DNA of 63,891 bases, filler included, from Chrysochromulina tobinii (Eukaryota), in assembly GCA_001275005.1 (NCBI GenBank). It is 8 parts of 8 records of this genome, joined end to end, with 100 filler letters (N's around TTAATTAATTAA, not from the genome) between each part and the next. Parts side by side here need not be neighbours in the genome. Positions count along the whole stretch, not along the records: positions 1 to 20,497 come from JWZX01000780.1; positions 20,598 to 26,020 come from JWZX01000781.1; positions 26,121 to 34,180 come from JWZX01000782.1; positions 34,281 to 38,293 come from JWZX01000785.1; positions 38,394 to 40,334 come from JWZX01000786.1; positions 40,435 to 50,244 come from JWZX01000787.1; positions 50,345 to 62,663 come from JWZX01000788.1; 1 more part is not named here. One strand, 5' to 3'. The translations under genes were made by a program, and so were the position numbers. Of the stretch, positions 1,700 through 50,443 are shown one piece after another; within the stretch, counting starts at the first letter, position 1; the number at the start of each line of letters is the position of its first letter. Under the pieces are notes generated by a model. The model was not told where the DNA came from and searched no databases. It saw only the letters and a list, made by a program, of their open reading frames with translations.

Positions 1700-3329
1700 T
1701 CACCCCCCTTTCTCCCTGGGCGTGGTGCTGGCCCACACCTTCCCATACGGTGTGAGCTGCTGCACTTGCTCGGCGGTGAGGTAGCGCCCGTCGACGAGGG
1801 CCTTCGCCGGGTCACTCGCCACTAGATGTACCTTACCCATGGACTGACGGTCAATCAGTTTCGTCAGTACGTGATCGACGACCCAAGCTCCAATCGCGGG
1901 CGCTCCCATCACAAGGCACGCGCCGAGCAGCTGCGGATAGTGCGCCTTGCTCACTCTGGCCACCTCCGTCCAAAACGGGATCGCGCTGAAAAAGCGTAAC
2001 GGCTCAAACTCGCGCACTTCGTAAACCGCCAAGTGGCCGCGCGACGGGCAAGCTGAGCTGTCGACCTCCTGAACCACGACCTCCATCCATCGCAGGTAGC
2101 GCCTCACGATGTCGCGCTGCGAGACGCCTGTGGGGAAGGATGGGCGCCGTGGTGAGCACTTGCATGCAGGGCAGGATCCATCTTAGGTTCGATGTCGCGC
2201 TGCGACACGCCCTTGGCCAGCAGCTTGGGCACATCCAGCGCGCGAAGGTCGTAGAAGATCACCGGGCGGCCCTCGAGGTCGTGACAAAGGACTTGCATCG
2301 CATGTGGACCCATCGCGTGCTCCAGCGCCGCCTCGGCCGTTGGATCTGCCAGCTTGAGCGCGCCCGGGCGGAGGAGCTCATGGATCCCCTCTTCTTCGCG
2401 CCAGCGCGACGATGCCGCAAAGGCTACCGCGGCCTTGGCCACGTCGCCCTGGTGCTCTTTCAGATAGCGCGCGCCGCTGTGGGCGGAGGGCGGCTGGGCG
2501 CCGAGCTGGGCGCATGCCCCGCAGAGCTTTTCGAGGCTCTGCTCCTCTGGGGTCCTCGGGCTATCCTCGGGCGCCGTGTCCGGCGTCGTCACGAACCAGC
2601 TCGCATTCCTCCAGAGCCCGCCCGACTCCCCGCTGACCCCCTTGAAGCGCAAAGCATTGCGCGCGGCGGGCGCGAGCTCGTTCTCAACGTACCACCGGAT
2701 GCTGGGCCGCGCGAGCCCGATCCCGCCCGCGTCGACCTCCGTGTACACGCCGCCCTCCACCCTGTAGAGCACCCAGTTGCACAGGACGAGGCTCGCCACA
2801 TACTCGCGCGCCTTGCCCTCGTCCGTGTGCGTCGACGGCTCGAAGTTGTGGATGCCGTTCTCGGTGACGACGACGTAGCTCTCGGGCACAGGTGGGCTCA
2901 GGATTCGGAAGAGCTGGTCGAGCACGCCACGAAGCAGCGCCAGCTGGGTACGGCCCTCTGTCGCCTCCTTTGTGGCGAGCTCGTCTCAACACTACCTACC
3001 CGGATGCTCGGGCCGTCGCCGAGCCCGATCCCGCCCGCGTCGATCTCCGTGTACACGCCGCCCTCCACCCTGTAGAGCACCCAGTTGCAGCGGAGCCTGG
3101 CCACAAAGCCGCGCGCCTCGCCCTCGTCCGAGAGCTCCGACAGACCGGTCCCACGAGCGACATGCTCATGGGTCACAAAATTGTGGATGCCTTTCTCGGT
3201 GATGATGACGTAGCGCTGGTGCGGGCCGCCTCCGCCAAAGAGGCTCTTGAATAGATCCGGCACTAGCGAGACCGCTGGAACCGTGAAAGAGGCGTTCGGG
3301 ATGGATGGCATCTGGTCGAGAACCGTCAT
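1700..3329 (-). CDS. CRAL-TRIO/Sec14-like lipid-binding protein with two tandem N-terminal domains; one intron (2128-2210) and an apparent frameshift at ~2985-3000
   Basis: ARYLKEHQGDVAKA..WREEEGI (CRAL-TRIO N), DLEGRPVIFY, HYPQLLG..MGAP (C-terminal); duplicated domain CNWVLYRVEGGVYTE[IV]DAGGIGL; splicing the GC-AG intron joins ORFs 2104-2925 and 1700-2107 in frame. Confidence 0.75.
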
Positions 3330-3755
3330 TTTCAAGCGCCCTTGAACTTGGGCATTTTGCCGAAGCAGAACCCAAAACAGCAAACATTCCTAATTCACAA
3401 CACACCGACCTCAAAGGGTGAAGGGCGGCAACACCTCGCACTCACAGTCGCTTCATTCTCATTCCTTCACAGACAAGGGTTCACACTATTAATTATCTCG
3501 ATCCTTTTCGCCGCGAATCACAGATCGACAGACACGGCACGCACGCGCTACGTAGCCGACACTACTCTGACATGCACTTGCTGAGCGGACTGAAAGGACA
3601 CGGAAGGTCACGCGATATTTCGTTGCGTTGCGTACGTGCGCGCTGATTCCTGATTCGCACGTCATGATGCCAGCACGCAACGCGTCTCGATCGTGATTCG
3701 TGTGCCTTGATATCGGCTACTTATCATCATCATCTCTCCCTGCCTGAGGCCTCGT

Positions 3756-4954
3756 CTACACGCTGCTCATGCTGCTCGACGAGAACATGCCAAACCGGAA
3801 AGAGGCGCGCACCTCGAGCCAATCTCGTGCCGCGCACCGATCGTCGGCAACCATGCGCGTGATGCGGTCCTGCTTCGCATGCTCACGTGCCGCGTAGTCA
3901 CCCACGCGTCTCCACCGACGGAGCGGATCTGCCTTGAGCGCCTGCTGCACCTGATGAGGGAGGCAATCAGCATGCAATCAGTCTCCACCGACGGAGCGGA
4001 TCTGCCTTGAGCGCCTGCTGCACCTGATGAGGAAGGCAATCAGCATGCAATCAGTCTCCACCGACGGAGCGGATCTGCCTTGAGCGCCTGCTGCACCTGA
4101 TGAGGGAGGCACTCAGCGGCGCTTGAGAGACATGCTGAGGGCAGGTCCGAGGACGATTGAAACTCAGAGAGTAACAGTAGCCCATCGGGGGGGTAGCCCG
4201 ATCGGGGGGGAGGGGGTCGGCAGCTCGGGCAGCGCTGTACCTGATGCTGCCAGACGGACACATAGTCACCAGTGGCCGCTGAGAGCTCTGAAGGCTTTGG
4301 AGCGGCCGGCGCCAAGGGCGGCGTGGGCAGCAGGGGCGTCTCGCATCGCGGCATGCCAAAGGGCGTCGTGCCAAGCTCCAGTCGGGTGAGCGTCCGTGAC
4401 TTGATACTGCTCCCCCTCTTGTGTGCATCTGCCGCGGCCGAATGCGGCCGGCTGCGATCGTGGCTGTTGAGCATGTCGGGCAGGCTGGTAGTGCTCGCGC
4501 TCGAGGTGAGAACTCGGCCGACCCGGCTCACAGTACGCGTCTGTGTCGTTGGCGTGAGCAGCTCCGCCAGCGCCTTGCGGGTCTTGTCACTCGCCTTGTC
4601 GGGCGTCGTCGGTGGCGCGGCTCCCTGGTGGTTCTCCTTATTCTCCTTGTTGACCTTGCTCCGAGCCCGAATGATGGAGTCACTGCCCATCTCTACCGTC
4701 GTTGGCGTCACCCACGCATTGGGCAGAACTGGCGCGGACGCGGTGTGCGGCATCTGCGGTGTTGAAGCGAACTGGACGATCTTGGCCACGGAGGAGCTCG
4801 CGCCTGTCGGCGTGCTCGCAATGCATCGAACGCGCGCGATCGGCGTTGGCGCGCTGGCTAGGTTGCGGCTCGTTGGGATCCGCGCGACGACTGGGGCGAC
4901 TGGCAGTGAGTTCGGAGCCTCGCGCTCAGGCAGCACGAAGAATGGCGACTTCAT
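3756..4954 (-). CDS. Hypothetical Pro/Ser/Thr-rich protein, 2 exons (intron 3951-4240)
   Basis: ORF 4040-4954 joins via CAG|GTACAG...CCCTCATCAG|GTG to VQQALKADPLRRWRRVG..., stop 3756-3758; contains KEN motifs. Confidence 0.55.
3908..4110 (-). repeat. Three tandem 73-bp units = 3' splice site + first ~42 nt of exon 2
   Basis: Units start at 3908, 3981, 4054. Confidence 0.95.
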
Positions 4955-5220
4955 GAGAAGAGGGACGAGGAAAGATCTTCTTTTGAATTCGGCTTTCGCG
5001 ACTGCGAGTTTGAGAGCGTCCCGTGTTCCAGTTCACAGCCAATGGTCACACTGTCGCACGAGTGTAACGAGATTGTTGAGAGATGGGGGAGGGTGGCAGG
5101 TTAGCGACGGAATCAAAAATAGACACCGTTCACAGCCGATGGTTTGGACGAAAGGGCTGGGAGGCCGCCTCCCTCTTGACTGTCCCTACAGCCGGCATCA
5201 CGACCGACTCCGAGTCGACG

Positions 5221-8200
5221 ATGCTGCTGCGCGCGACCAGCACCCGCTCGGAGGATGTAACCCGGCCGCCGCTGGCGCAGCGCTATCGATCTTCACCTCT
5301 CGCCTCGCCAGAGATGCCCACGGGCATCACCAACATCATCTCCAACGAGGCTGCCGAGCGCTTCTCCTTTTACGGCATGAAGTGCATCCTCGTCGTGTTC
5401 ATGACCTCGCATCTTCGCGACGCGCAGAGGCAGCCGGCCTATCTGAGCGAGAAGGTCGCACTCGTCTACTACCACTCATTCACCAGTGCCGTGTACCTGA
5501 CCCCGCTCGGCGGAGCGCTGCTAGCCGAGGCGGTGCTCGGCAAGTACCGCACGGTCGTGTACCTGTCGCTCGTGTACTGCGGAGGGCACCTCGCTCTCGC
5601 AATCGACGAGACGCGCACCGGTGATGGCCGCTGGGCGCACACGTAGTTGATTGCGTCCGATGGCCACGGATGGCCGCTGATTGCGTCGCGATTGGCGCTG
5701 AGAGCCGCTGATTGCGTCTGATTGCCGCTGAGGGCGCCCTCGCTCGAGCAGGCCTCTTCGTCGGCCTCGCCCTCGTCGCCCTCGGCTCCGGCGGCATCAA
5801 GCCGTGCGTCAGCGCCGTGTTGGGCGACCAGTTCGGCGAACTCAACCAGCACTTGGTGAGCGTCGCCTTGATTGCACTTGATTGTGTACTGGTTTGCTCT
5901 GGATTACAGTGGATTGGTGAGCTCGGCCTTGGTTGAACATGGTTGCTCTCGATTGCACTTGATTGCCTCAGGTGAGCACGGCCTTTGGGTACTTCTATCT
6001 GGCCATCAATCTGGGCGCCTTCACCTCGACGTTACTCACACCCTACCTTCTCGAGCACGCGGGCTCGCATGCGGCCTTTGGCGTGCCAGGTGGTTGCACT
6101 TGATTGCACTCGTTTGCACTTGAGTGTACTTGACGTGGTAGTGCTCACCACGGCGCCCTCGCCCACACACAGGCATCGCCATGGCTCTCGCAACGCTCGC
6201 CTTCTGGAGCGGCCGTCACAAGTACAGACCTCTGATGACCTCTGATGACCTCTGATGGCATGCTGATTGCCATACCGCCGCCGTAGGTACACGCACGTGC
6301 CCCCGAATGCGAGCCGCTTCCTGATGACCTCTGATGACCTCCCTCATCAGGTACACGCACGTGCCCCCGAATGCGAGCCGCTTCCTGCGCAGCACTTGTA
6401 GCCCCGAGGGTGCCCGCGCGCTGTGCAAGCTGATCGGCTTGTTTGGCTTCTTCGCGGTGTATTGGAGCTTGTATGACCAAAGTGGCTCGGCGTGGGTGCT
6501 GCAGGTGAGCGTCTCGGATGGCCCCTGATGGCCTCTGATGGCCTCCCTCATCGCATGCATGTGAGCGGCTCGGAGTGCTTCTGATGGCCTCTGATGGCCT
6601 CTGATGGCCTCTGATGGCCTCCGATGGCCTCTGATGGCTTCTGATGGCCTCTGATGGCCTCTGATGATCACTGATGGCCTCTACTGGCAGGCAGAGAAGT
6701 TGGACAGAAGGTTCCTGGGTGTGGAATGGCTCCCCTCCCAAATCGGGGCGATCAATCCTCTCTTGATCCTCACACTCGTACCGCTCCTGCACGGCGCCGA
6801 CTTTGGCACCCCTCTCGGCGCCGTGTCGGGCGTGGGGCGCTCGGCGTTCTTCGCACGGCTCGGGCTCGTACCACGACGGCGCGTGCGGCTGGTAGGGCTC
6901 TACGAGCTCGTCGCCCGACACGGCGTTCGCGTTACGCCGCTGCGTAAGATCGGCTGCGGGCTCGTGCTCTGCGCGTGCTCGTTCCTGATCCCGCTGCAGG
7001 TGGAGGTTTGGATGGAGGCGAGCGGGTACAATCATAGCGCTGCAGCTCTGGCCGAGTGCAACGGCGCTGTTGGCGACGGCGGCGGCGGCGGTGCGCGTGG
7101 CTGTGGGCTCAGGCCCAGCATCGCATGGCAGGTGGTTGCCTTTGATCACGTGCCCACTGATTGCCCTTGATGAATACTGCTCAGTGAGGCCGAGCATCGC
7201 GCGGCAGCTCCTCGCTGATCTCGTGCCCCCTGATTGCCCTTGATGAATACTGCTCAGTGAGGCCGAGCATCGCGCGGCAGCTCCTCGCTGATCTCGTGCT
7301 CACGCTCGTTGATCTCGTCTCGATCTCGTCTGATCTCGTCTCGATCTCGTCTCGGTTTCGTCTGATCTCGTCTCGATCTCGTCTTGGTTTCGTCTGATCT
7401 CGTCTCGATCTCGTCTCGGTTTCGTCAGCTCGTCGCCTATTTCGTGCTCACTCTTTCGGAGGTGCTCGTCTCCGTCACTGGCCTCGAGTTCAGCTACACG
7501 CAGGCGCCACCGGCCATGAAGAGCATGGTGATGGCATTCTACCTCAGCGCGGTCGCCGCAGGCAATCTGGTCACCGTGGCCATCAATGCGAGCATCCTCA
7601 ACGCTGACGGCTCGAGCAGGTGAGTGCCGCTGCTTGCCGCTGATGGACTACGATGGCTTCTGATTGCTTCTGATAGCATCTCGAGTTCATCCCTGACTGC
7701 ATCTCTGATTGCCTCTGATGTGGCAGTTGGAGTGAGGTCGAGTACTATCGGTTCTTCACACTGATTGCTTCTGATTGCTTCTGATTGCTTCTGATTGCCT
7801 CCGATGTGGCAGTTGGAGTGAGGTCGAGTACTATCGGTTCTTTACACTGATTGCTTCTGATTGCCTCTGATGTGGCAGTTGGAGTGAGGTCGAGTACTAT
7901 CGGTTCTTTACACTGATTGCTTCTGATTGCTTCTGATTGCTTCTGATTGCCTCTGATGTGGCAGTTGGAGTGAGGTCGAGTACTATCGGTTCTTTACACT
8001 GATTGCTTCTGATTTACTTCTGATTGCTTCTGATTGCCTCTGATGTGGCAGTTGGAGTGAGGTCGAGTACTATCGGTTCTTTACACTGATTTCTTCTGAT
8101 TGCTTCTGATTGCCTCTGATGTGGCAGTTGGAGTGAGGTCGAGTACTATCGGTTCTTCACACTGATTGCTTCTGATTGCTTATGATTGCTTCTGATTGCT

Positions 8201-8560
8201 TCTGATTGCCTCTGATGTGGCAGTTGGAGTGAGGTCGAGTACTATCGGTTCTTCACGCTGCTCATGTTCGTCACCGCCGCCGCCTTCGTGCCGTACGCCG
8301 CGTGCTACAAGGAGAAGAGATACTTTCAAGGCCATGGGATGGACGAGATAGAGACGAGATCGGACGAGATGGAGACGAGAACAGACGAGATAGAGACGAG
8401 ATTTCAAGGCCATGGGACGGACGCGGACGCGGACGGTCCCGAGGCGGGGGCGGGGCCGCAGCCGACGTGGCGATCGTCGCAGCCGCTGCTGCCCGATGAG
8501 GTCAAGCTCGCGACGACTCGACCACGAGACGCTATAGTCGCTCGACACGAGACGCTTTAG
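5221..8560 (+). CDS. POT/PTR family proton-dependent oligopeptide transporter (multi-exon; start may be 5083)
   Basis: [12 protein letters not shown] (ExxERF), [41 protein letters not shown] motifs; introns ~5621-5751, 5856-5971, 6090-6172, 6222-6350, 6505-6690, 7132-7428, 7620-8223. Confidence 0.92.
7715..8260 (+). repeat. Seven copies of acceptor + exon start (GATGTGGCAG|TTGGAGTGAGGTCGAGTACTATCGGTTCTTYAC) separated by variable numbers of CTGATTGCTT decamers
   Basis: Direct reading; only the last copy (exon from 8224) continues into the ORF. Confidence 0.95.
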
Positions 8561-9186
8561 AGGGCTTTAAAGGCCGACTCGGTCTCGCGCGGGGTCGGAT
8601 CCGTTACGATTAGTACGACGTTAAAGCTACGACGTATGACGCGGGCGATACGCGGGCGAGGACGCGAGGTCAAGGCCGTATATTACATACTCTACCGCAC
8701 GGGTCTAGGCCGTCCGGTCTAGCCGACCGCGACGCGCGACCTGACCACGCGACGTCATACACGACGCGCGCGAGACGGGCCGAAGCGCGCGGCGACCGGC
8801 GTGGAGAGTTTCAGAGTAGCCCGAGCTGGAGTACCTGGTTAATATCATATTATGCGCGCCCCGGCGGCGGTCTTCTAGAGAGACGCGCCGGGCGGACCGG
8901 CACTTATAAATCGAATTCATCCCGACACCGTTAGGTCCCTTCTCTAGAAGAAAGCGCATTCAGCATTGTATGTGCATTGAACGCCATGGAGATTCATGTG
9001 TTTATGACACTTCGATCTCCCATCTGTGCGAGCCTTCGGACTTCGCTCACATGATCCTGATCGCCGGCGCGCTCGCCGTGGTTCGCGCGGCACGCCGCCA
9101 GACCCGAGACCGCAGAGGATCCGTATAGCCCGAAGTCCCGGACGAGATTCTACGAGATGCTCCCGAGATTCTTCGAATTTCGTCAG

Positions 9187-11115
9187 TCAGGTCGCCGAAT
9201 GCGGCGACACGCTGCCAGCATTGTCTCGCGCCGAGATCACGACCTCGCGGAGGGGGATCACGGCCTCCCCACTGGTGCTTCTCCCCCGAGCGTCGCTGGA
9301 CCTGCCCGGAGAGAGCGTCGTCCCGGGCGTTGGAGAGGGCCCCCCTCTTGAACGAGGCGAGAGGAGCGCGGCTCCGAGCCCAGTGCCGGAGCGTGTCATC
9401 TCGCGCTCGAGTGCCCACGACGGCGGCAGTGAGGCGGAGAGGCTAGGCGACGAGGTGACCTGATGAGGGAGCTCATCATGTACCATCAGAGGCGATCAGA
9501 GGCAATCAGATGCGATCAGAGGCCATCAGAGGCGTACTGAGGAGCGTTGGGAGGTGGCCAATTAGGGAGGCAATTAGGGAGGCGATCAGGGAGGCGTACT
9601 GAGGAGCGTTGGGAGGTGGCCAGCGTGGCCAGCGTGGCTACATGCATCTGGGACGAGATCAACGAGGGCGAGGTGCATCCGGGTCGAGATTGCATCTGGG
9701 ACGAGATCGACGATGGCGAGGTGAAGGATTCGGGTCCTCTGTTGAAGGCGAACTCGGAGCCAAGCTCCATCTCCGTCTCCAGCCGCGCGCGCTCGACGAT
9801 TGCAGCTGATGAGAGAGGCAGTTGGGGAAGCAATTAGGGAGGCCATCAGGGAGGCAATTAGGGAGGCAATTAGGGAGGCAATCATCTCCGTCTCCAGCCG
9901 CGCGATATCGACGATTGCAGCAGCAGCGAGATGCGAGCACATCCCGACAGAGGCCATCCGAGGCCATCCGCGGCCATCCGAGGCCATCCGAGGCCATCCG
10001 AGGCCATCCGCGGCCATCCGAGGCCATCCGAGGCACTCACCAGCGCGGATCTCATTATTAGGGAGGCAATTAGGGAGGCAACTAGGGAGGCACTCACCAG
10101 CGCGGATCTCCCGCTCGCGCGCCACTCGATGGCACAGCCCCGCATTCTCGGCCTGCAGCCGCGAGAGCTCGTGCTGCAGAGTTTCGTTACCCTTGCGCTG
10201 CTCTTCACACTCTCTCCGATAACGCTCCTGCTGCTCGCCCAGCCGATCGATCTCGCGCGTGAGGTGCGAGACGAGGAGATGCGTTCGCGCCGCCTCCTCG
10301 TCCGCCGCCGCGACGGTGCGCCCACGACGGCGCTCCTCGTCCGCGGCTGCCGAGGCCGTCGCCGCCGACGGCGACGCGCCGGCTGGCGGCGCCGTGTACT
10401 CGCACACGTGGGGTGGTGGCGGCAGGTCCTCCGCGGGGGCCATCCCCGCCGCCGCCGTCACCGCCGCCCCCATCCCCGCCGCTCCGCCGCCGCCGCCGAG
10501 GCGGCTGTCTGCGGCGGCGGCATCGGCGGCGTGGCCAGTCCAGCGCTGCAGGTGCCCCTGGATGCTCTGCAGGATCGACGACGTGTTCTCGCGCAATCTC
10601 GTCTCAAGGGCGCGCTTCTCATCGAGGACGGCGCCGAGCTGCTTCTGCAGCTTGTTCACGATGTACTCCTGCTCCTGCTCGAGCTGGATCTCAAGGTGGA
10701 CCTTCTCTTCCTTGACCTTCTGGAGCTTCTTGGTCAGCGCATTCGTGATCATCTCCTCCTCCACCTCCACCTGCCGCGCGAGCTCCTCCTTCTCCTGCTG
10801 GAGCGCCTCGAGCCTCTTCATGAGTTTGTTGGTGATGTACTCCTCCTCCTGCTCGGCCTGGACCTGCAACTGCCCCTGCAGCTGCGTCTGACGGTCGAGC
10901 TGCACCTGCAGCCGCGCTCGAGCTGATTTCTCGCGCTCGAGCTGAAGGAGCGCGCTCTGCAGCGCCTGCTGAAGCTCAGGCACAGACGCGAGCGCCAAAG
11001 GCACCGAAGCGAGGCTATCGGTCTCGGAGGCGGAGTCGGGCGCCTCTGACGGCACGGCAGACGACTCCGACGTGACCCGTTGCACAAGGTCAGGACGAGA
11101 CTCAGGCGTCGACAT
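9187..11115 (-). CDS. CCDC6/H4-like coiled-coil protein (DUF2046), introns 9806-10097 and 9460-9599
   Basis: AEQEEEYITNKLMKRL..EEEMITNALTKKL..LEQEQEYIVNKLQKQL repeats typical of CCDC6; splicing keeps the frame to the stop at 9187. Confidence 0.8.
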
Positions 11116-11291
11116 CGTTCCAAGCAGCGTGCGTGCGTGGGTGTCGCGGCAAGACGCGCAGAAGTAACTCGACTTTTTGCCCGAGGTGCTCGCCTTTACT
11201 GTAGAACATGCGAAATGTTATTTTTTCCGTGGGCGCGGACCACCAACTCAAGGCGGTAGCGCGGTGTTTGTTCACAGACGCGCACTGCACC

Positions 11292-13880
11292 ATGCGGACG
11301 CATATGCTTCTAGCTCTGCTCACATTGCGTGCCGCCTCGGGCTTCTACCTGCCTGGCGTGGCGCCTCGCGAGTACCTGGATGGAGAGAAGGTCGAGGTTA
11401 AGGTCAACAAGCTCACATCTACCGTCACGCAGGTGCGCTCTGCCCACGGCCAGCGCCTTCGCCATGGCCGGCGCTCTGGCCTGCTATCGACGCGTACGCC
11501 TGCACCCGCCCTGAACAGCTGCCGTACGACTACTATAAGCTTGCCTTTTGCAAGCCCAAGGAGCTCATCAACGCGGTCGAGAACCTCGGCGAGGTCCTTC
11601 ACGGCTCGGTGATCCAGAACTCGCCGTATCAGCTCTTTGCGCAGAAGCAAGACTTCAAGGTGCTCTGCAAACAGGATCTGGACGCGAAGCAGGTGGCCGA
11701 GTTTGGGAAGCGGATTGGCGAGGAGTACCGCGTGCAGCTCATCATGGACAACCTGCCCGCGGCCACGCGCATGATCTCCGAGCTGCCCAATGGAAAGACG
11801 GTCTACATGTACGACCGTGGCTACAGGTTGGGCTTCATGGGAGCCAAGGAGTTTCCTGGCACGATCCCAAAGACGCCGTACCTGAACAACCACCTGCGCT
11901 TCATCATCAAGTACCACAAGGACGCCAAGTTCGAAGGCGCGCGCCTCGTCGGCTTCGAGGTCGAGGCCTTCTCCGTGAAGCACACCTACAAAGGCAAGTG
12001 GGGCGTGGACGCGAGCCTCACCTCGGTGCCTCTGTCGCCGGACCTGCCACCCCAGCCGATCGTGGAGGCGGGCGAGTACATCTTCACGTACGACGTGCAG
12101 TGGGAGGAGTCACCTATCCGGTGCGACTCGCGATGATCGCGCCTAGACCTCCCCACATGGGTGATTGCCTCTCTCATTCTCTCATTGCATGCTGATTGCG
12201 TGGGGTAGGAGTCACTCGTCCGGTGCGCCTGATTGCCTCTTCTCATTGCATGCTGATTGCGTCGGATTGCGCTGCATGCAGGTGGGCTTCGCGCTGGGAC
12301 CTCTACCTCTACATGGGTGACGACCAGATCCACTGGTTTTCGATCCTCAACTCGCTCGCCATCGTGCTGCTGCTCACGGGTACGCGCTTCGGCTCGGATG
12401 GCCTCTGATGGCCTCAGATAGGTTCTGAGTGGCTCTGAGTGGCTCTGAGTGGCTCTGAGTGGCTCTGAGTGGCTCTGAGTGGCTCTGAGTGGCTCTGAGT
12501 GCGTTTCCATTTTCCGCCCTCATCAGGCATCGTGGCGATGATCATGATGCGCACGCTGCGGCGCGACCTCAACCGTTACAACTCGGTCGAGGAGAAGGAG
12601 GAGTTGGCAGACGAGAGTGGCTGGAAGCTCGTACATGGCGATGTGCTGCGCCCGCCGCCGCTGCCCCTGCTTCTCTCGTCGTCGGTGGGGACTGGCATGC
12701 AATTGCTCTTTATGGCCATCATCTCGATCTTCTGCGCGATGCTCGGTTTCCTCTCTCCCGCCAACCGCGGCGGCCTTCTCACTGCGACGCTGCTGCTCTT
12801 CGTGTTGATGGGCGTGCCTGCGGGCTACTACGGCTCGCTCCTCTACAAGTCCATCAAGGGCTCGCAGTGGAAGTCGTTGACCGCTTCGACCGCCCTCCTG
12901 TACCCAGGCGTCATCTTCCTCCTCTTCTTCTGCCTCAACCTCTTCATATGGGGCTGCGGCTCGTCTGCCGCTGTGCCCTTCACCACCATGCTTGCCCTGA
13001 TCTGCATGTGGTTCTGCATCTCCGTCCCCCTCGTCTTTCTCGGCGCGTTCTTCGGCTTCCAGACGACCCTGCCCGAGCCGCCGGTGCGCACACGATCGAG
13101 ATCGCACGCCAAGGACTGCCGCATGCAAGTGCTCACCACGGCGCCATCTCTTCCCCACAGGTGCGCACGAACGAGATCGCACGCCATGTACCGCTGCAGG
13201 CGTGGTACATGGGGTTGCCGTGCACGATGGCGGTGGGCGGCATCTTGCCGTTCGGCGCCGTGTTCATTGAGCTCTTCTTCATCATGAGCTCTGTCTGGCT
13301 GCAGCGCTTCTACTACGTCTTCGGCTTCCTCGCGCTTGTGATCTTCATCCTGCTGCTCACGTGCGCCGAGATCTCGATAGTCCTCTGCTACTTCCAGCTC
13401 TGCAACGAGGATTATCACTGGTGGTGGCGCTCCTTCCTAAACTCGGGCGCGGCAGGCGGCTACTTGCTTGGCTACTCCGCCATCTACTTCCATACACAGC
13501 TTGACATGGTCGGTTTCACACCGACGCTCCTCTACTTTGGGTGTGAACGCCCCCCGTGTGCTGTGGAAGATTGCCTTTGGGTCTCCCCCGCGTGCCTCTC
13601 TGATAGCCCCGATCACCTCCCTCCTCAGGCACACGTTGATTGCCACTGATTACCACTGATTGCCACTGATTGCCACTGAGTGCCACTGATTGCACCCCTC
13701 CTCAGGCACATGTTGATTGCCACTGATTCCACTGATTGCCACTGATTGCCACGGATTGCACCCCTCCTCAGGTACATGTTGATCGCCGCCATCATCTTCG
13801 CGCTGATGACGGGTACAGTTGGTTTCATGGCCGCGTGGTGGTTCGTGTGGAAGATCTTCTCGGCCGTTAAGGTCGACTAG
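11292..13880 (+). CDS. TM9SF: Transmembrane 9 superfamily (EMP70/nonaspanin) protein
   Basis: Signal peptide then [61 protein letters not shown]-terminal KVD; introns 11433-11518, 12122-12282, 12380-12526, 13084-13160, 13541-13771. Confidence 0.95.
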
Positions 13881-15195
13881 GACCGACACGAGCCCAAGCA
13901 GAGGCAGCTCTCTCGATTAGGAAACCGGAGGCCCTCTCCCGCTCGCAATAGCCTCGCCTAGCGCCGTGAGGCCTTGCGTGGAGCGTGCATGCAAGTGCTC
14001 ACCCCGGCGCCTCTCCTAGCGCCGTGAGGCCTTGCGTGGAGCGTCCCGCGGGGCGCTGTCTGTGTTGCGGTGTCGCGGCTTGCATCTCGGAGATCGCACC
14101 TCGGAGATCGCATCTCGTGTGCCCCAATCGTCGGAGATCGCATCTCGTGCGCCCCAGTCGAGCCGCCGTCGTGTATCACACCGCGGCGCCTGCAACGTAC
14201 TCACTGTGCTCTCACACAGCGACGCTCACCCCCACGCCCCACAGTGCCTCGCCGTCGACCGGGCGCGCGACGCACTGACCACGCTGTGTCCTACTAATGC
14301 TGACACTGCGCACCACTCGGCGGGCGTGTCGGCTGTCGCGACGGTGTCGCGCCGGTGTTCGGTGGAATACGATCCGATCGCAACGTCCCCGGGCGCTCGC
14401 GGAGACGCGTGGGGCACGGGCGGGAGCCGGTCCGCGACTACTTAGTTCGTCATCATAGTATTAGACTCTTGACGATGTGACCACATAACCTCGAGGGCGC
14501 GGGCGAGGTGCTGGGGACAGACAGACGAGAGTGAGTGTCCGGTCTTAGATGAAACAGAGACGGCGGAAACGGAGCGTCGGAGCCCCAGCCCGGGCCGAGC
14601 CCGAGGCACAGACCGCCTCCGGATGGCGCTCGGCGGGCCGGACCCGCGGCGCTCGCCGGATAGCCGTTATGATTACTAAGCGACACCGTCTCCGCAGCGG
14701 TCTGACACTGTGCGCTCCTATGACACGCCGCACGAGGTCGAGGACCGGACAACGTTTCAAACAAGCATGTTTCAAGCATGTGGGTGACTGAGTGCGCGTG
14801 CCCGCGCAACCGGAACCGCTCTCCTGCTTCCATTATGGCTGTTCCTGCTACGCCACTTCAAGCACGATTGTACCATTGTACGATTGTAGTTTGTACGAAC
14901 GGGCGCAGAGCGTACTCCGAAGTTCCACGTTCCACCGTCGGTGCGGAGTATATGGACTTTGGATGGACCGTGTGGCAGTTGCGCGCCGTCGTGGACAGCC
15001 GGACACGGCGATCCGCCGGCGCGCCGACCCGAGCGCGCGCCGTCGTGGACAGCCGGACACGGCGATCCGCCGGCGCGCCTCGACCCGAGCGCGGTCTACC
15101 CTCGGCCCTCTAGAGATGAGGTGTCGCACTTCAGTGCCTCTGTGCTCCGCAGAGTGATGCATGGCGTGCCATAGGATTGTCGACGTGCCCGCGCT

Positions 15196-15933: not shown

Positions 15934-16080
15934 GGCCGTCGGGCCCCGAACTTCGCGAGTTTGGTCATTGGTTGGTCTTGAGTGGAGAGTGGAAGCCCAC
16001 CCCGTCCCGTCCCTAGGTCTCCATGTTCTGTACATGAGCTACGAAATTGGACAACTGTTCCCCGCCGTATCGGGCGGCGC

Positions 16081-17461: not shown

Positions 17462-20400
17462 ATGTCGGGCTCGCATCTCAGCCGCGACTTCTTCGAGCTT
17501 ATGTGCGCGCACACCCCAGCTCCGGCCAGTGCACGGCCAGGCACTCAACGCGAGGCGATGAAGTAACGGGACGCACAGACAGCGGGTGCGCTCACGCGCA
17601 CCAATGGGAGTGTCCTCACGCGCGCGCCATCGCCTGCTGCTATGTGCGCAGCAAGAGCATCGGCGAGTGCAAGTCGAAGCAGGAAGAGGATAAGATCTTG
17701 GCCTCGGAGGTGTCCACGCTCAAGCAAATCTTCACCACGCAGCTCACTGATAAGAAGTTGAAGGAGGCGCTCATGCGGGTCATGTATGCAGAGATGCTCG
17801 GCCACCACGCCGATTTCGGCCACATCCACGCGGTGAACATGACGCAAAAGACGAATCTCGTCTCCAAGCGCGTTGGCTACATGGCGAGTGCTGCCTGCCT
17901 CCACCCGGGCCATGAGCTGGTCACGCTCGCCGTCAACACCATGCGACGCGACGTCGCGTCGTCGAACCACGTCGAGGTGTGCGCGGCGCTGATCGCGATC
18001 CCGAAGCTGGTGAGCAAGGAGTTCCTCCCCGCGCTGCTCCAGCCGGTCCTCGCCCTCCTCGACCATGCCATGGAGGCCATTCGTAAGAAGGCCGTGATGG
18101 TGCTGCACAAGTTCTACACCATTGAGCCCGAGAGTATGGCGAGTCACACGGATAAGCTGCGGCGCGCGCTGTGCGACAAGGACCCGGCGGTGATGGGCGC
18201 GGCGCTGTACATCTTGCATGCGATGGCCGAGCAGACTCCCGCGCATCACAAGGACCTTGTGCCCTCGTACGTTTCGATCCTCAAGCAGATCACCGAGCAT
18301 CGGCTGCCCTCCACGTTTGATTACCATCGCGTGCCAGCTCCATGGATCCAGATCAAGCTGCTCAAGCTGCTGGCCCTGTTGGGCACGAACGACCAACGCG
18401 CGAGCGAGGGCATGTACGAGGTGCTCAATGACGTGATGCGCCGCGCCGACACGGGCATCAACATCGGATACGCGGTCATCTACGACTGCGTGCGCACGGT
18501 CACAACGATCTATCCGAATATCCCACTGCTCGAGGCGGCGGCGGGCCACATCGCCCGCTTCGTCCAATCGGAGAACCACAATCTCAAGTATCTCGGGATC
18601 AAGGCGCTCGCCCAGATTGTGCAGGTACGGACGAACCCACGCCCTAATCCAAATTAGGCAGGCCATGCGCCCGAGCTGCCCGGCCTGCAGCACGTGCTCA
18701 ACACGGCGCGCACCATCGCCTCTCTCGCCTCTCTCTCTCCTCTCCCCACAGGTCAACCAAAAGTACGCGCTCGACCACCAGATGGTCGTCGTCGAGTGCC
18801 TCGAGGACCCTGACGAAACTCTCAAGCGGAAGACCCTCGACCTGCTCTTCGCGATGACGAACGCGTCCAACATCATCTTCGTGGCCGACACACTCCTCGG
18901 CCACCTGCGCTCGACAACGGACCAAACCTTCCGAGGCGGCCTCGTCGACCGCATCACGCAACTCGCCGAGCGGTCAGCGCAACTCCCTACAGCGCACTGC
19001 CGAGCAACTCCCCACAGCGCACTCCCGAGCGGCGCCCACCATGCGAGCGCTCACCACGGCGCCCGGCTCTCCGCGCCTCGGCCCGCTCTCAAGCGTGCGA
19101 GCGCTCATCACGGCGCGCATTCCTCCCCTGCCCCCCTCCCCTGCCCCCCAGGTACGCGCCCGACAACACGTGGTACATTCGGACCATGAACGCGGTCTTC
19201 GAGCTCGGCGGCGAGTTAGTCCGGCCCGACATCGCCCACAACTTGATGCGCCTGATCGCCGAGGGCTCCGGCGAGGATGAGGCCGCTGACATGGCCATGC
19301 GCAAGTACGCGGCGTCGCAGTACTATGAGCTGCTCGAGAAGCCAGTGCTGCCCGACAACCTCGTGCAGGTGCTCTGCTGGGTGCTGGGTGAATATGGTTA
19401 CCTGGTCGACGGCACCCAGGTCCTCGACATAGCGACGCGCTTGTGCGGCGTCATCAAGCGCCAGTTGACGCACGTCTCGACCCGCAATTGGGTCTTGGGC
19501 GCGCTCGTGAAGCTCGTCGCCCAGCTTGGCCAGGCCCCTTCCCAGGTGACCGAGCTCGCCCAAAAGTACTCTCGGTCCGCGGACGTGACTCTCGCAAAGT
19601 ACGCGAACGAGCTGCTCGTATTCAGGGAGCACATGGACGTGATGAAGGCGGTGCTGCCCGTGGACGCGTCGTGTGAGGACCTCGAGACCGATCGCTCGCT
19701 TTCCTTCCTCAACGGCTATGTGCAGGTGACGAAGCCCTGATGGCCTCTCTTGATTGCCTCTGATTGCAGGTGACGAGACCCTGCTGGCCTCTCTTGATTG
19801 CCTCTGATAGATTGCAGGTGACGAGACCCTGCTGGCCTCTCTTGATTGCCTGCTTCCCCCTTCTTCTCAGTCTCTCCCCTTGTTTGGCTCACGATCACTG
19901 ATGACCACTGATGACCACTGATGACCACTGATGATCACTGATTGCTTCCCTCATCAGTCTCTCCCCCTTGTTTGGCTCACAGGCTGCCGTCGCCAACGGC
20001 GCCCAGCCCTACCTCAAGCGCGGTCAGCGCCCGGCAGACCTCGAGGCTGCGGCAAAGCGGGCCGCGGAGATCGCCGCCAAGCAGCCGGCCCAGCCGACGA
20101 TGCGCTTCGAGGAGTATGAGCGAGCACAGCTGCCCGTGATGTCGGCGCCACCAGCGGCGCCGGAGCCATCGGCGCCTGCCGTCGAAGAGACGCCACCACC
20201 CCTCTCGAGCGGCCTCAACACCTCAGGCGTCAAGCAAATGTGGGGCGCCGAGGGCTTCATGGGCGACAAGCCCGCGCCCGCGCCCACCCCCGCACAGGTC
20301 TTCACACCGGCTGGGGCCCCTCCGGCGGGGGGGTACCCCGGGAGCGCGCCGCAGGCCCCCCCTCGCCCCGCCGCGCCACCGGAGAAGAGTGCCGAACAGA

Positions 20401-20497: not shown

Positions 20498-20597
20498 NNN
20501 NNNNNNNNNNNNNNNNNNNNNNNNNNNNNNNNNNNNNNNNNTTAATTAATTAANNNNNNNNNNNNNNNNNNNNNNNNNNNNNNNNNNNNNNNNNNNN
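20498..20597. other. Artificial contig linker (N44-TTAATTAATTAA-N44); identical linkers at 26021-26120, 34181-34280, 38294-38393, 40335-40434, 50245-50344, 62664-62763
   Basis: Six-frame-stop linker embedded in Ns, 100 nt each. Confidence 0.98.
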
Positions 20598-40334: not shown

Positions 40335-40434
40335 NNNNNNNNNNNNNNNNNNNNNNNNNNNNNNNNNNNNNNNNNNNNTTAATTAATTAANNNNNNNNNN
40401 NNNNNNNNNNNNNNNNNNNNNNNNNNNNNNNNNN

Positions 40435-44958: not shown

Positions 44959-44995
<37 letters not shown>

Positions 44996-45232
44996 AGCGG
45001 CGGCTTCGGCCTCCTTGGCCGCCACCTCCTCGAGAGAGAGGATTGGACCGTGGAAGGGATCCTCCTGCTTCACACCGCCCTTAGTGGCCAGGATGGCGTC
45101 GCGCGCGGCCTTGCGCCGCACCGCTCGTTGGCCGGCGGCGATGGCCATCGCCACTTTCGTATCATAGACGTGCTGCTGCTGCTTCTGCTTGCTAAGTGCG
45201 ACCCATCGCTCCTGCGCGCGACGGGTCGTCAA
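40435..45232 (-). CDS. Large Sfi1-like (putative centrin-binding) Trp/Arg repeat protein, 3'-truncated; N-terminal exon unresolved
   Basis: Dozens of LxRG[FW]xxW / FxxW helical repeats, with higher-order DNA repeats in 40435-42700. Confidence 0.7.
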
Positions 45233-45308
45233 AGGCGGCCGTGGTCAGTCAGAGCTGAGGCGCTGCTGGGAGCGGCAGAACCGGGGTAGGCAGCGGCGAT
45301 GGCCGCCG

Positions 45309-45321
45309 CAGCAGCAGCAGC

Positions 45322-45408
<87 letters not shown>
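45309..45408 (+). repeat. (CAG)n microsatellite, ~33 units with one CGG interruption
   Basis: Direct reading. Confidence 0.97.
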
Positions 45409-45411
<3 letters not shown>

Positions 45412-45936
45412 TTGGGCGCTACTCCGGTTACCGCGCCTGCGGCGACGAGCAAAGACTTTGGTTCCTCGCTCCTTTATGACGTCGATTGAGCTGCCCGCCG
45501 GCTTCACGAGCATCGTGGACTAAGCAATTGTGCCCAAGGCCGCTCAAATCAAGCAGCGGGGCGACTGATCTGGCCTCACGAGCCTCGGTGATGCCGCATT
45601 CTTCACCTCTCCATTTCGTGGACTCCGGGAACCAGGATCATAACGCCAGAGTTGATCAGAGCAGGAGCGGTCGCAGGGAATCTGTGCAAAATCATTTTCC
45701 TCATTCCTGAACTATAGTCACTATCTTCCACAGAGCGCTTCGAAGAGCGCTAAAGACCATGGGGTAGTTCTTAGGTAGTTCTAGTTGGTACCACTTTATT
45801 AGTCTAATTAGTCTAATGATTCATGACGCAGCGTAACCGTAAGAGGGGAAATTTGTACGGCAGCGACGAGCGAGCAACGAGCAGCGAGCAGCGTTCTATC
45901 ACGCTATGGCGCTTCTGCGGTTCTGGCAGTTCTGGT

Positions 45937-46113
45937 ATAGTTCACCCAAAGTGGGGGGTATCATCCCGTAGGATCATCCTTGTGCAGCGGATTGCCTCCC
46001 GGAGGCTCAAATACTTCGCGTCATAGTTCCCAAAGTGGGGGGTATCATCCGATCATCCCCTTGGGCACAGCCACAGGGCAGCGGATGGCCTCCCGGAGGC
46101 TCAAATACTTCGC
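45937..46113. repeat. Imperfect ~85-bp tandem duplication with internal palindrome GCCTCCCGGAGGC
   Basis: ATAGTT..CCCAAAGTGGGGGGTATCATCC...GCAGCGGATxGCCTCCCGGAGGCTCAAATACTTCGCG occurs twice. Confidence 0.85.
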
Positions 46114-46695
46114 GATCTGGGGCGGTCGCGGCTCCTGCGGGCGGCTCGTGCGCGACCCTGTGGCCTGTGCTCACACTTTTGCAATTTGCATGCACTTTTG
46201 ACTTTAGTTTGCTTCCTGCTTAGACTAAGACTTAATCCGCTTGCGCCTACCTTGGCCGCTTGTACCTAGCTACCTTTCCTTCACCCGAGCGGTCGTGGGA
46301 GCCGAAGCCGGTACGGAGTCGGAGAGCGGCGGGAGCGCAGACCCCCGGTGCCCCGGCAGCGACCCACGGTAACGCCATGGGTAATGCGACTCTAAGAAAA
46401 TGGGCCTGCACACACTGGACACTCACACGGGACAAGAGTCAAGACGCACATATGATATATGATGCATGATATGATCTGACGAACGCGTAACGGAACCGCC
46501 GCGACCGGGCAACCGGCTCAACCGCGCACGTCACAGATCTCTGTCATCTGTGATCTGAGATCACACACGACGCCACAAATTCAAATACCAGACCGCGGGT
46601 CGACCACAGTACTCAGTAGCAGTACGGACTGGTCTCGTCGTGCGGTGGTCGCTTCGCGTTAACGGCGTTAAACCTGGCACCCGGCCTGTGCGCCT

Positions 46696-49158
46696 TCACT
46701 TCTGGCTACTCTCTAAACTGTTACTATCCGGATACATGGCCCCCTTCATGAGCGAAAGCCCGTCAATAACGCCAAAGTCGGCATCGGTGGCCGCGCGCAC
46801 GCTCGCGAGATCGACGCCAGATGCAATCTCGCGCAGCGTGAGGCCGGAGCCGTCGGGTGCGACGTCGAAGACGCCGAGTTCGGTGATGAGCATCGACACG
46901 CAGCGTGCGCCGGTGAGGGGCAACGTGCAGTGGCGGAGCACCTTCGAACGCCCTCTCTTGTCGCAGTGCTCCATCGTGACGATCACCTTGGCGGGAGAGG
47001 AGACGAGATCCATCGCGCCGCCCATGCCTTTGACGAGCTTGCCAGGGATAAGGTAGTTGGCCATGTCGCCGTTAGCAGCGACCTGCGCCCGAGCCGAGGG
47101 TGGTCGCAATCAGAGGCGCAATCTGAGGCGCAATCAGAGTCGCAATCAGAGGCGCAATCAGAGGCGCAATCAGACCTGCGCCCGAGCCGAGGGTGGTGAC
47201 GTCGCAGGAGCAATCAGTCTCAATCAGAGGCGCAATCAGAGGCGCAATCAGAGGCGCAATCAGACCTGCATCGAGCCGAGGATGGTCACGTCGCAGTGGC
47301 AATCAGTCGCAATCAGAGGCGCAATCAGCGGCGCAATCAGACCTGCATCGAGCCGAGGATGGTCACGTCGCAGGAGCAATCAGTCGCAATCAGAGGCGCA
47401 ATCAGAGGCGCAATCATGGGCTATCAGAGTCCATCAAGCCTGAGCCCGAGCTGAGGTTGGGCCTCATCAGGCGCAATCAGTCGCAATCAGAGGCGCAATC
47501 AGAGGCGCAATCAGACCTGCATCGAGCCGAGGATGGTCACGTCGCAGTGGCCGCCGCGGATCATTCCAAAAGAGGCATCCGCGCTGAAGTACGAAGCGCC
47601 GGGCAGTGCAGTCACCTGAGTAGGGACGTACTCCGATACACTCAGCCGCAATCAGCCGCAATCAGCCGCAATCAGTCGCACTCAGCCACCATCAGATGCA
47701 ATCAGCCGCCATCAGAGGCACTCAGCTCACCGTCTGCTTGCCCGCGTTGATCAGATCGGCATCCTCTTGCCCCCTTGTGGGGAAAGGGCCGACGCCGAGC
47801 ATCCCGTTCTCGCTCTGCAACGTGATCGAGACGCCTTCGGGAATGAAGTTGCTCACCTGATGAGGGAAGCCATCATAGGTCATCAGAGGTCATCGGAGGT
47901 CATCGGAGGTCATCAGAGGTCATCAGAGGTCATCAGAGGTCATCAGAGGTCATCAGAGGTCATCAGAGGTCATCAGGCGCTCACGAGGGTCGGCAGCCCG
48001 ATGCCCAGGTTGACGTAATCTCCGTCAGCGAGCTCGAGCGCCGCGCGCCGAGCAATCCGCTCTCGGTCCGGCGTCATGGCGTCCCCTTCGGTCCGTTCAC
48101 CGGCGAGGGTGAGGCGCTCGATACAACGCTCGGACGGTCCCTGCACAATCCGCTCGACGAAGAGGCGCCATCAGCGGGCGCAATCAGATGGCGTAATCAG
48201 CCGGCGCAATCAGCCGGCGCCATCAGCGGCGCCATCAGCGGGCGCCATCAGAGGGCGCAATCAGTGAGGTGCAATCAGAGGGCGCCATCACCTGCACGAT
48301 CCGGTCGACGAAGATCCCCGGCGTGTGGATGTCGTTTGGGTCGAGCGTCCCCGCGGGCACGAGCTCCTCCACCTGCCTCGAGGAGGCAATTAGTGGCAAT
48401 CAGAGGCAATTAGTGGCAATCAGAGGCAATTAGAGGCAATCAGGAGCGGGCACGAGCTCCTCCACCTCCGCGATGGTGATCTTGCCCGCCGTCGCCACCG
48501 CCGGGTTGTGATTACGCGAGGTCATGCGATAGATAAGGTTGCCCTCGGTGTCGCCCTTCCACGCGCGCACGAGGGCAAAGTCGCCAGGCAGCGCCCGCTC
48601 CATGATGTACTCCTTACCCTCGAAGAGCTGCGACGCGCGTGGCGTCGAGCCCTTGATGACCTTGCCCGAGCCATCGGATGCGTATCGAACTGGCATGTTG
48701 CCGTGATGAACGAGGGTTCCGACACCGGTGGCGGTGAAGAAGGCCGGGATGCCCGCGCCGGCCGCGCGCATCCGCTCGGCCAGCGTGCCCATCGGCACCA
48801 GCTCGACATCGATCTCGCCGCTCAGGAATTGCTTCTCGAAGAGAGCGTTCTCGCCCACGTACGAGCCGATCATCTTGGAGATCTGCTTGCCCTGGAAGAG
48901 CAGGCCGAGGCCACGCTCGCTCGTGCCCACATTGGAGCTCACCACCGTCAGGTCGCCCACACCCTTCTTTTGCAGCGCAGCGATCAGGTTCTCAGGCACG
49001 CCCGTAAGGCCGAAGCCGCCGACGAGCAGCGTCGCGCCCGACGGCACGTCGGCGACGGCATCGGCGGCCGACGCGAAGACCTTGCCGCCGACCGGCACCG
49101 TCGACGAGCGATGCCGTCGCGCTGCGGCCAACGTCGTCATCAAGGCGCGACGCACCAT
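46696..49158 (-). CDS. OXCT1: Succinyl-CoA:3-oxoacid CoA transferase (fused A+B), mitochondrial-type presequence, 5 introns
   Basis: [52 protein letters not shown] (catalytic Glu), [10 protein letters not shown]. Confidence 0.95.
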
Positions 49159-49341
49159 GGCGAACGCGCCGTGATGGGCTACTCGAATCTCCTCGGGGCA
49201 CCTGATCTTTAGAAAGCAGCAGGACGGGGCAAGTTCAAGTCATGCATAGAGTCGGAACCACGTCGCGTGCGATGTACATGTAGTACCAAGTACCTTTGTA
49301 CTAAGGGACCCAACCTGAAGGTGTGGCCCCAGTCTGCCCCT

Positions 49342-50084
49342 TCAGCGATGGCGCCCACTGGCATGCCCACGGGCTTCAGGGCGCTTGCTTCGTCTGTCCT
49401 TGCCATCCTCGCTGCCATGGCTTCCTTGGCGCTTGCCATCCTCGCTGCCATGGCTTGTTTGGCGCTTGCCATCCTCGCTGCCATGGCTTGCTTGGCGCTT
49501 GGGGCGTCGTCGGTGGTGTCCGCTGCCGCCGCCGCTGCGAAGCCTTTGAGGGGTGGGGCCTTCGCTGCGAGCGTCTCCGCCAGCCTCACCGCCCTCGCCA
49601 TCGCCACCGGCCTCGCCGCCCTCGCCCTCGTCGCCGTCATCGCCACCGTCGCCACCGTCGGCGCTACTGTTGGCACGCCTGCTGCCTGAGCTGCTGCCGC
49701 GCAGGTCGCCTGAGGTGCGCCGGTGGCGGTGCCGGTGCCCTTTTCCCGTGTCCCCTCGGCGCGTTGCAGTCGCCTTCTTGAACGAGCCGCCCATCGCGCC
49801 CGAAACGGCGCCCGATATGGCGCCCGACACGGCGCTCGCCGCGCCGCCGACCCACTTTTTGAACGAGCCGCTCGCGGAGGCGCCCGCTGCGGCACCACCG
49901 CTCACGACGGCGCTCACGCGCTTCAGAAAAGAGGGCGAAGAGTCCGGTGACGTGCCAGCGCCATCCGCGCTGCCGTGGGCGCCATCCGCGCTGCCGTGGG
50001 CGCCTCCCGCGCTGCCGTGGGCGCCTCCCGCCGCGCCTCCTATGAGCCGTTTGAATGAGTTCATCCAGGCTGAGTCTCCATGGG
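49342..50084 (-). CDS. Low-complexity Gly/Ser/Ala-rich 3' exon(s) of a truncated gene
   Basis: Acceptor CAG at 50085-50087 preceded by three branch-point-like repeats; SFKR/SFKK repeats; reading frame of the distal part uncertain. Confidence 0.35.
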
Positions 50085-50443
50085 CTGCGCCGTGGTCAGC
50101 GCCGTGGTCAGCGCCGTGGTGAGCATCGGGGTTGTCAGGGGAGGTCCAGTGGACGGCGGGGGGGCGCCCGGCGTACTCGGCGCCAAGGACATGTTTCCAC
50201 CACTCTGTTGTGCCCTGACGCTCGCAAAGTGGGAGGGGGGAGGGNNNNNNNNNNNNNNNNNNNNNNNNNNNNNNNNNNNNNNNNNNNNTTAATTAATTAA
50301 NNNNNNNNNNNNNNNNNNNNNNNNNNNNNNNNNNNNNNNNNNNNGCAGGGACCGGGTTGTCGCGCTCACCAGGCTGCTTGTGTAGCTCTGATGAACAGCA
50401 ATTCAAGTCAAACACGCGACCAAGTTTACGCACGCGGAGTCGA

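Follow-up and report, generated by a model that had tools for sequence, protein, structure and literature searches.

We analysed a stretch of 63,891 nucleotides from the alga Chrysochromulina tobinii (hereafter the window; GenBank assembly GCA_001275005.1, eight parts joined by 100 filler letters each), in which a first-pass annotation had pointed out an intronic cassette shared by unrelated genes, and found that this cassette is real, yet forms the middle of a larger footprint flanked by direct repeats. The cassette is the core common to many short inserts, a family whose members lie between 12-50-nt repeats of host sequence and form introns, and which has probably spread by target-primed copying of the ends of existing introns into staggered breaks. 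The observations behind this reading are the anatomy of the copies, the reading frames restored by splicing, the junctions in RNA, one empty-site allele, one parent-daughter pair and microhomology at the junctions.

The near-identical copies annotated at about 2144-2168 (-), 13121-13145 and 13987-14011 are borne out: a 26-mer is present without mismatch at 2143-2168 (-) and with one mismatch each at 13120-13145 (+) and at 13986-14011 (+). The other placements (a core at 6141, degenerate copies at about 18694, 19046 and 19100, and a tandem at 50088-50125 (-)) hold as well, with a 16-nt core at 6141, degenerate cores at 18694, 19047 and 19101, and the tandem at 50087-50126 (-). At up to two mismatches, the core is matched 10 times in the window compared to a mean of 0.20 after shuffling (none of the 100 shuffles reaches 10), and the chance expectation for an exact 24-mer in the window is 1.4e-8. 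Direct repeats, absent from the first description of the cassette, flank three of the window copies. The copies and their parts are as follows:

2128..2210 (-): 83-nt GC-AG intron of a CRAL/TRIO gene, consisting of the duplicated exon start (2210-2190), filler, the core (2167-2144) and a pyrimidine tail ending in CCCCACAG
2107..2127 (-): exonic, downstream copy of the target duplication in the CRAL/TRIO gene, 20/21 identical to the intron start at 2190-2210
13084..13160 (+): 77-nt GT-AG intron of an EMP70/TM9SF gene, consisting of the duplicated exon start (13084-13111), filler, an exact core (13121-13144) and a tail
13161..13186 (+): exonic, downstream copy of the target duplication in the EMP70 gene, differing from 13084-13111 by one 2-nt indel and one substitution
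13951..14044 (+): tail-less copy in the 3' untranslated region (UTR) of the EMP70/TM9SF gene, with a repeat at 13951-13986, the core at 13987-14010 and a repeat at 14009-14044
6090..6172 (+): 83-nt intron whose core is truncated at the 5' end (6141-6156) and followed by a tail, with splicing predicted from the frame only
18625..18751 (+): 127-nt intron of an adaptin gene, with a degenerate core at about 18686-18709 and a CCCCACAG tail
18973..19151 (+): 179-nt intron that holds two cores, both degenerate (19039-19062 and 19093-19116)
50087..50126 (-): tandem of a 12-nt unit similar to the core's 3' half, located in an open reading frame (ORF) that reads DAHHGADHGADHGAAHG, with no pyrimidine tail

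Removal of the introns at 2128-2210 (-) and 13084-13160 (+) restores the frames of the CRAL/TRIO and EMP70 genes, and the Pfam EMP70 match runs over 216-393 and then 400-517 across the joined exons of the latter. RNA contigs end at 2128 (runs X14 and X15, two of the three) and at 2207 (X14, one of the three), whereas a DNA contig passes through the first cassette and on to 2169. At 13082, RNA contigs of X15 and X16 (two of the three runs) depart from the genome with 163 nt left to map; at these three positions, the evidence consists of contig ends such as a splice would give rather than of displayed joints. In all three runs, RNA contigs join 18621 to 19151 minus 306 nt, which is the summed length of the two introns with degenerate cores (127 + 179). 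Runs X20-X22 (share 0.00) were left out. The two repeats around the UTR copy at 13987 are identical in 35 of 36 positions, the downstream one overlapping the core end by 2 nt, and this copy is retained in the transcript, with ungapped RNA contigs over 13771-14555 in three of three runs; the RNA libraries may contain DNA, and the contigs over this copy nonetheless start at the edge of the last exon. The cassette had been described as always intronic and located just upstream of an AG, which does not apply to the UTR copy or to the tandem at 50087, located in an open frame without a pyrimidine tail.

The family at large was sampled by scanning metagenome contigs for the exact 24-mer, which yielded at least 132 loci (denoted L with a number; all figures for these loci hold among the matches listed). 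Together with the parent-daughter pair described below, these loci support the common template suggested in the first-pass annotation. Among the 136 non-redundant exact sites listed, 100 carry a pyrimidine tail ending in YAG, which reads CCCACAG in 73 of the 100 and is followed by GT or GC in 90; similarity to the upstream sequence exceeds the 99th percentile of shuffled pairings in 79 of these 100 sites. With up to 4 mismatches allowed in the core, the exon start is repeated upstream (at least 11 of 14 positions) in 95 of the 142 tail-bearing sites compared to 1.8% of 3000 controls, and 88 of the 95 start with GT or GC. The target repeat is 12-50 nt long (median 28, n=88) and 95% identical between copies; filler of 0-38 nt separates the upstream repeat from the core, and the 3' junction is sharp and the 5' junction ragged. 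Short direct repeats are prone to mis-assembly and the window contains scaffold gaps, but an assembly artefact is hardly credible given that ungapped DNA contigs span the copies at 2144, 13987, 18694 and 19047/19101, that the loci recur across separate assemblies, and that the copies of the repeat differ by about 5%.

The copies come in three forms. In form A, the repeat starts with GT or GC and serves as the donor, and the insert brings a likely branch point and a CCCCACAG acceptor; with the donor supplied by the upstream copy and the acceptor by the insert, splicing restores the exon exactly. The introns of the 95 sites are 57-95 nt long, with lengths evenly spread modulo 3 (34/34/27) and no bias to multiples of three. 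The duplicated exon start is donor-like (n=88: G in 87, T in 83, a purine in 79, G at +5 in 58), and the donor is 14-53 nt (median 36) away from the core, a distance filled mostly by locus-specific sequence. Tails show no resemblance to the upstream exon of their own site (p=0.58, n=80; 32 of 80 have A at -2), indicating that the acceptor is imported. Form B has repeats that end in AG and inserts that carry a GT head (L098, L102, L125 and L132); a shared GT head is present in 11 of the 205 sites, 9 of the 11 with a repeat, and in several of these the repeat is the end of the upstream exon, which supplies the AG. Form C consists of the core only, without a tail, between repeats inside introns, in UTRs or in long open frames. 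The core contains no stop in any sense frame, and in-frame cores are found in apparent coding sequence (L066, L033, L124, L008, L017 and L123; peptides HASAHHGA, MQVLTTA and ACKCSPRR); the spacing of tail-less copies is a multiple of three in 9 of 21, overall not above chance. The tandem at 50087-50126 is probably coding and its kinship to the core family is uncertain; like it, L038, L028 and L100 contain short arrays of the core's 3' half with 12-18-nt units.

An all-against-all comparison of the loci produced one pair of filled and empty sites, L071 versus L010/L036, in which the direction (gain or loss) is unpolarised. The 81 extra nucleotides of L071, located between flanks that are 98% identical, consist of a perfect 33-nt repeat that starts with GTGAGT and a 48-nt insert; this insert equals the last 48 nt of an intron located 524 nt downstream in L010, ending at the AG of that intron, and L071's own copy of the parent intron has one mismatch to it. 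The empty allele is in frame, and the L071 insertion amounts to 27 codons with no stop. Other same-gene pairs with common tails or fillers are found in L044, L038, L088, L013 and L048, and in L067 (core at 198, minus strand) the 5' part of the intron copies the exon-start repeat of an intron 400 nt downstream, with 6-nt microhomology at the junction.

These observations bear on the alternative that plain tandem exon duplication makes the introns, with the core entering later or being homogenised by gene conversion and selection. Tandem duplication is apparent in the alleles L021 and L047, which differ by one 94-nt unit (a difference that fits unequal exchange between repeats), and the repeat of L069 contains AG|GT; exon duplications are also present in the other intron families of the window, and in 8 of the 88 form-A sites (L024, L034, L109 and five more) the acceptor cassette stands directly behind an older acceptor, some of another family, in what appears to be repeated insertion at existing 3' splice sites. 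This alternative nevertheless seems quite improbable, considering that the form-A acceptor is no copy of the local exon end, that the core, the tail and the repeat arrive together in a single polymorphic step in L071, and that full cores are kept in UTRs, in exons and in antisense orientation, where a branch point is useless.

Compared to independent markers provided by other intron families, 92 of the 207 copies are on the same strand and 7 on the opposite one, several of the 7 being noise (99 copies were scored and 108 were not). The claim that the cassette is always sense-oriented proved wrong, with antisense copies clearly present in L069 (core at 18-41) and probably in L065 and L043/L095. 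In L043/L095, the antisense core provides the stop codon of a gene with a last exon that, presumably, resembles the end of a family-A DNA polymerase. Among the apparently splicing-neutral copies that have an independent strand marker, inspection puts about 6 loci in sense and 3 in antisense orientation, which does not demonstrate a mechanistic sense bias.

The suggestion that CTCAC is the branch point is plausible: positions 11-15 are among the least variable of the core (81 non-exact copies), and, judging from tail lengths, the predicted branch-point A of most tail-bearing copies would precede the AG by about 22-34 nt. Across 7 allele pairs, the core shows 1 difference in 192 nt. Such conservation, together with the 92 to 7 strand bias, would be compatible with an extended splicing element, that is, a long branch point or protein-binding site that is under selection and immobile. 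However, such an element explains neither the target duplications nor the empty site nor the non-intronic copies and is very improbable; as the sole explanation, it is ruled out by the target duplications and the empty site of L071. The view of the cassette as a long splicing signal thus does not stand as the sole account, the feature being an insertion with a long target duplication. A splicing role may still account for the non-eroded 5' half of the core, the persistence of which may aid splicing or mobility. A GNRA-capped hairpin at this 5' half was considered and dropped because frequent variants at positions 8 and 10 break the pairing; a second hairpin (positions 9-13 with 20-24; -4.3 kcal/mol) shows 38 compatible versus 23 breaking changes, a count confounded by transitions and shared descent. 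Divergence of the repeats did not follow divergence of the core (small n), and improvement of the donor in the upstream repeat was too weak a signal (in 88 sites, position +5 had turned into G 4 times and lost it once).

At the 3' junction, microhomology of at least 3 nt was detected in 8 of the 26 copies in which the repeat begins no more than 8 nt from the core end, compared to 1.2 expected, and in 6 of 24 after two copies that abut another core were dropped. Terminal inverted repeats (TIRs) were found in none of 95 copies when the core start was compared with the tail end. Annealing-primed synthesis at staggered nicks is a better fit than cut-and-paste to the lack of TIRs, the variable repeats, the sharp 3' and ragged 5' junctions and the microhomology. 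Under the mechanism we propose, two nicks about 28 nt apart would lay bare 3' ends, one of which would pair by a few bases with a core-carrying template and be extended; the target would be duplicated by fill-in; and, in exons, the survivors would be mainly those copies in which the duplication provides the missing splice site. New form-A introns, each followed by a donor-like exon start, could serve as templates themselves, so that the family would propagate without any coding capacity. The polarity of the insert is that of target-primed reverse transcription. We tentatively prefer an RNA template, with a reverse transcriptase acting in trans, to a DNA template with a repair polymerase, itself a possible if more doubtful source; repair synthesis from a nearby DNA template would give a similar trace. 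The precise AG/GT ends and the sense bias can be explained by selection alone and hence do not decide between the templates.

Several observations weigh against target-primed copying of intron ends or narrow the support for it. The current data fit RNA and DNA templates alike, and a profile search found no reverse transcriptase or transposase family among the 25 ORF pieces of the window. The choice of the sample by exact match inflates the uniformity of the core, and no anchored repeat is present in 47 of the 142 tail-bearing sites or in 4 of the 7 non-tandem window copies, the target duplication being undetected at 6141, 18694, 19047 and 19101, which are older-looking copies. The polymorphism between L071 and L010 could possibly represent precise loss between repeats or assembly collapse rather than gain, and L010 and L036, being identical, are perhaps not independent. 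The signal of local parentage is confined to a minority: an upstream match of at least 5 nt is shared by 9 of 102 same-locus pairs compared to 434 of 21,173 others (the pairs are not independent), and same-locus enrichment is lacking for core variants (6 of 32 versus 264 of 2164, p=0.27) and for tail similarity (p=0.26).

A dedicated DNA transposase, Replitron-like with an HUH nuclease or other, could in principle move the core, which would then be a minimal non-autonomous element that has fuzzy ends and makes variable duplications. The 5' border at the palindrome GCATGC is sharp in 59 of 104 half-anchored hits and extended palindromically by at least 3 nt in 34 of the 207 copies, and Replitron-1 gives variable target-site duplications (TSDs) and carries parental flank, with one Replitron protein reported in C. 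tobinii (accessible text of PMC10288648). However, no common direct terminal repeat was seen among our copies, in which both ends vary, the inserts, at 24-70 nt, fall short of the approximately 52 nt common to Replitron-1 and N1 at each end (same text), and the junction microhomology suits primed synthesis better, so that a transposase appears unlikely. The alternative of a miniature inverted-repeat transposable element (MITE), raised at the outset, fails along with DDE transposons in general: TIRs are present in 0 of 95 copies, and the duplications, at 12-50 nt (n=88), are variable rather than short and fixed.

If introns are indeed copied in this manner, they might beget introns without any transposon of their own, a generalisation that we offer with reservation: a host or hijacked polymerase would copy the branch-point regions of introns already present, at times that of a neighbour within one gene, into staggered breaks of about 28 nt, in a process that would be still active, would reshape UTRs and proteins, and would be invisible to introner screens. 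With the duplicated exon providing the other splice site, such a process would feed itself.

The other intron families of the window consist of 10-12-nt repeats (CTGATGGCCT-, CTGATTGC- and CTAATTGCCTCC-like) that end in CCCTCATCAG or similar and are located at 3908-4117 (-), 6220-6350, 7700-8250, 9460-10110 (-), 13540-13771, 19725-19982, 47080-48460 (-) and 55947-56086. They repeat the start of the exon next to them, in many cases as stacks of up to 7 copies, and are probably products of the same process with different templates; chimeras of the core with these families are found in L014, L048 and L099. GCATGC precedes a branch-like motif in a second family (GCATGCTGAT) too (window positions 13121-13126, 12121-12281 and 3908-4117). 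TGCATG is the RBFOX site of animals and, by analogy, could possibly act as a splicing enhancer here. Short-spaced (22-45 nt) direct repeats with no recognised core between them were also identified in non-coding parts of the window (1061-1175, 14981-15079 and 45945-46114).

The remaining observations on the window concern its neighbouring content. The N runs of the scaffold gaps (20498-20597 and six further gaps) include a TTAATTAATTAA linker, an assembly feature. An intron-free ORF for uracil phosphoribosyltransferase groups at 90% with a protein of Chrysochromulina parva, as expected of a haptophyte host, and three large repeat proteins are encoded at 20550-25493 (-) (Sel1 and 20 ARM repeats), 50444-55996 (+) (FG/GLEBS-like, ankyrin and VWA) and 56321-59629 (+) (alpha-kinase).

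At 13146, contig depths of the DNA run add up to about 33,000 compared to about 45-60 in single-copy bins, which is not itself a copy number; together with the three near-exact copies in 63 kb, it makes a family size of hundreds to a few thousand copies likely. Prokaryote genomes contain a single match, tail-less and apparently inside coding sequence, that is likely due to chance, and viral contigs a single contig-end match with a tail that is likely host DNA. The origin of new spliceosomal introns is a long-standing question, and recent surveys credit bursts of intron gain mainly to transposons, on the basis of end-to-end similarity between introns. A family of the size estimated above, in a species group scored as devoid of introners, exposes a systematic blind spot: it was missed because one third of each intron copies its own exon. 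Rescreening is simple and consists of comparing the start of an intron with the start of the next exon. Furthermore, the combination of a polymorphic insertion, an identifiable parent 524 nt away and a culturable alga makes the template and the enzyme directly testable.

We found no published description of this family in the accessible portions of the literature, although the supplements of introner surveys (PMC9860276, PMC12130899 files 13-14, bioRxiv) or the sequences in the authors' GitHub could list it; the accessible text of PMC8557442 does not mention haptophytes, that of PMC4580454 mentions 'intron' once, and those of PMC11282704 and PMC8469720 hold nothing specific. C. tobinii is assigned 0 introner families in a 2025 survey (PMC12130899, supplement file 7), and it is listed in the input table of the 2022 survey and absent from the other accessible parts of the supplement. 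The pipeline of that survey requires similarity near both intron ends, so that form A cannot qualify; indeed, the operational definition of Gozashti 2022 asks for similarity that comes as close as 10 intronic nt to each of the two boundaries, and the family lacks it. In the broad sense of introner, similar introns occupy many unrelated gene positions (at least 132 loci and 136 non-redundant exact sites) and are spliced such that the mRNA is restored (frames, Pfam continuity, RNA contig ends, the 306-nt skip and the even distribution modulo 3).

Comparison with other sources of introns and repeats, as described in the accessible parts of the respective papers, places the family between several known systems. 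In the Daphnia neointrons attributed to repair of staggered double-strand breaks (PMC4202315) and in introns formed by tandem genomic duplication (PMC3443670), terminal exon bases are repeated at the far end of the new intron and events recur at the same site, as they do here; the Daphnia repeats are 4-12 bp long and no common insert family is described, whereas here one core is found at 132 or more loci. Derivation of both splice sites from a duplicated segment with AGGT does not apply to form A and was found singly, for example, in L069 (18-41).

As in target-primed reverse transcription of non-long-terminal-repeat (non-LTR) elements, a long, variable TSD abuts a sharp 3' junction, the 5' junction is ragged, and microhomology and stacked partial copies are present. 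The differences are the lack of a poly(A) or simple-repeat tail and of a tRNA-like head (or any tRNA, 7SL or 5S head typical of short interspersed elements), the length of only 24-70 nt, and a template that appears to be an intron end. Tail-less, internally primed retrocopies do occur among the products of non-LTR retroposition. At the Rfam gathering score, no match was detected in the window or in the 20 of 135 loci examined, and no small nuclear RNA (snRNA) gene was found in this scanned DNA, leaving an explanation by snRNA pairing without support. Variable-length TSDs are on record for long interspersed elements and Penelope-like elements, including 126 bp for R9, and for Dualen (PMC9977147). 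Replitron-1/N1 of Chlamydomonas resembles the family in copy-and-paste, oriented insertion, variable TSD, fuzzy ends and carried parental flank; its members have short direct terminal repeats and kilobase-sized bodies (PMC10288648), and their insertions in coding sequence and introns are fewer than expected (PMC9977147), in contrast to the copies aligned here, in which both ends vary and no direct terminal repeats are common to all.

The closest parallels are provided by introners. The Chrysochromulina sp. introners from a TARA metagenome-assembled genome (Gozashti 2022 Fig. 2C) share the genus label and the absence of TIRs with the present family and differ in having a 4-bp TSD and in carrying the donor and co-opting the acceptor. 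In the introner-like elements of Symbiodinium and in classes 1, 4/5 and 6/8/10 of Polarella (bioRxiv 10.1101/2020.10.14.339549), the element provides the 3' splice site, with the TSD giving the donor, and donors derived from the TSD are also seen in Gozashti 2022 Fig. 2B (10.1101/2022.06.06.494994). Like these introners, the family analysed here has one splice site per element and one per duplicated target, leaves an exact mRNA and has many genic copies; unlike them, with TSDs of 3-8 nt that are fixed per class and often with TIRs, it has variable 12-50-nt TSDs that account for about a third of each intron, no TIRs and ragged ends. The feature is an introner-like element whose target duplications are variable and unusually long.

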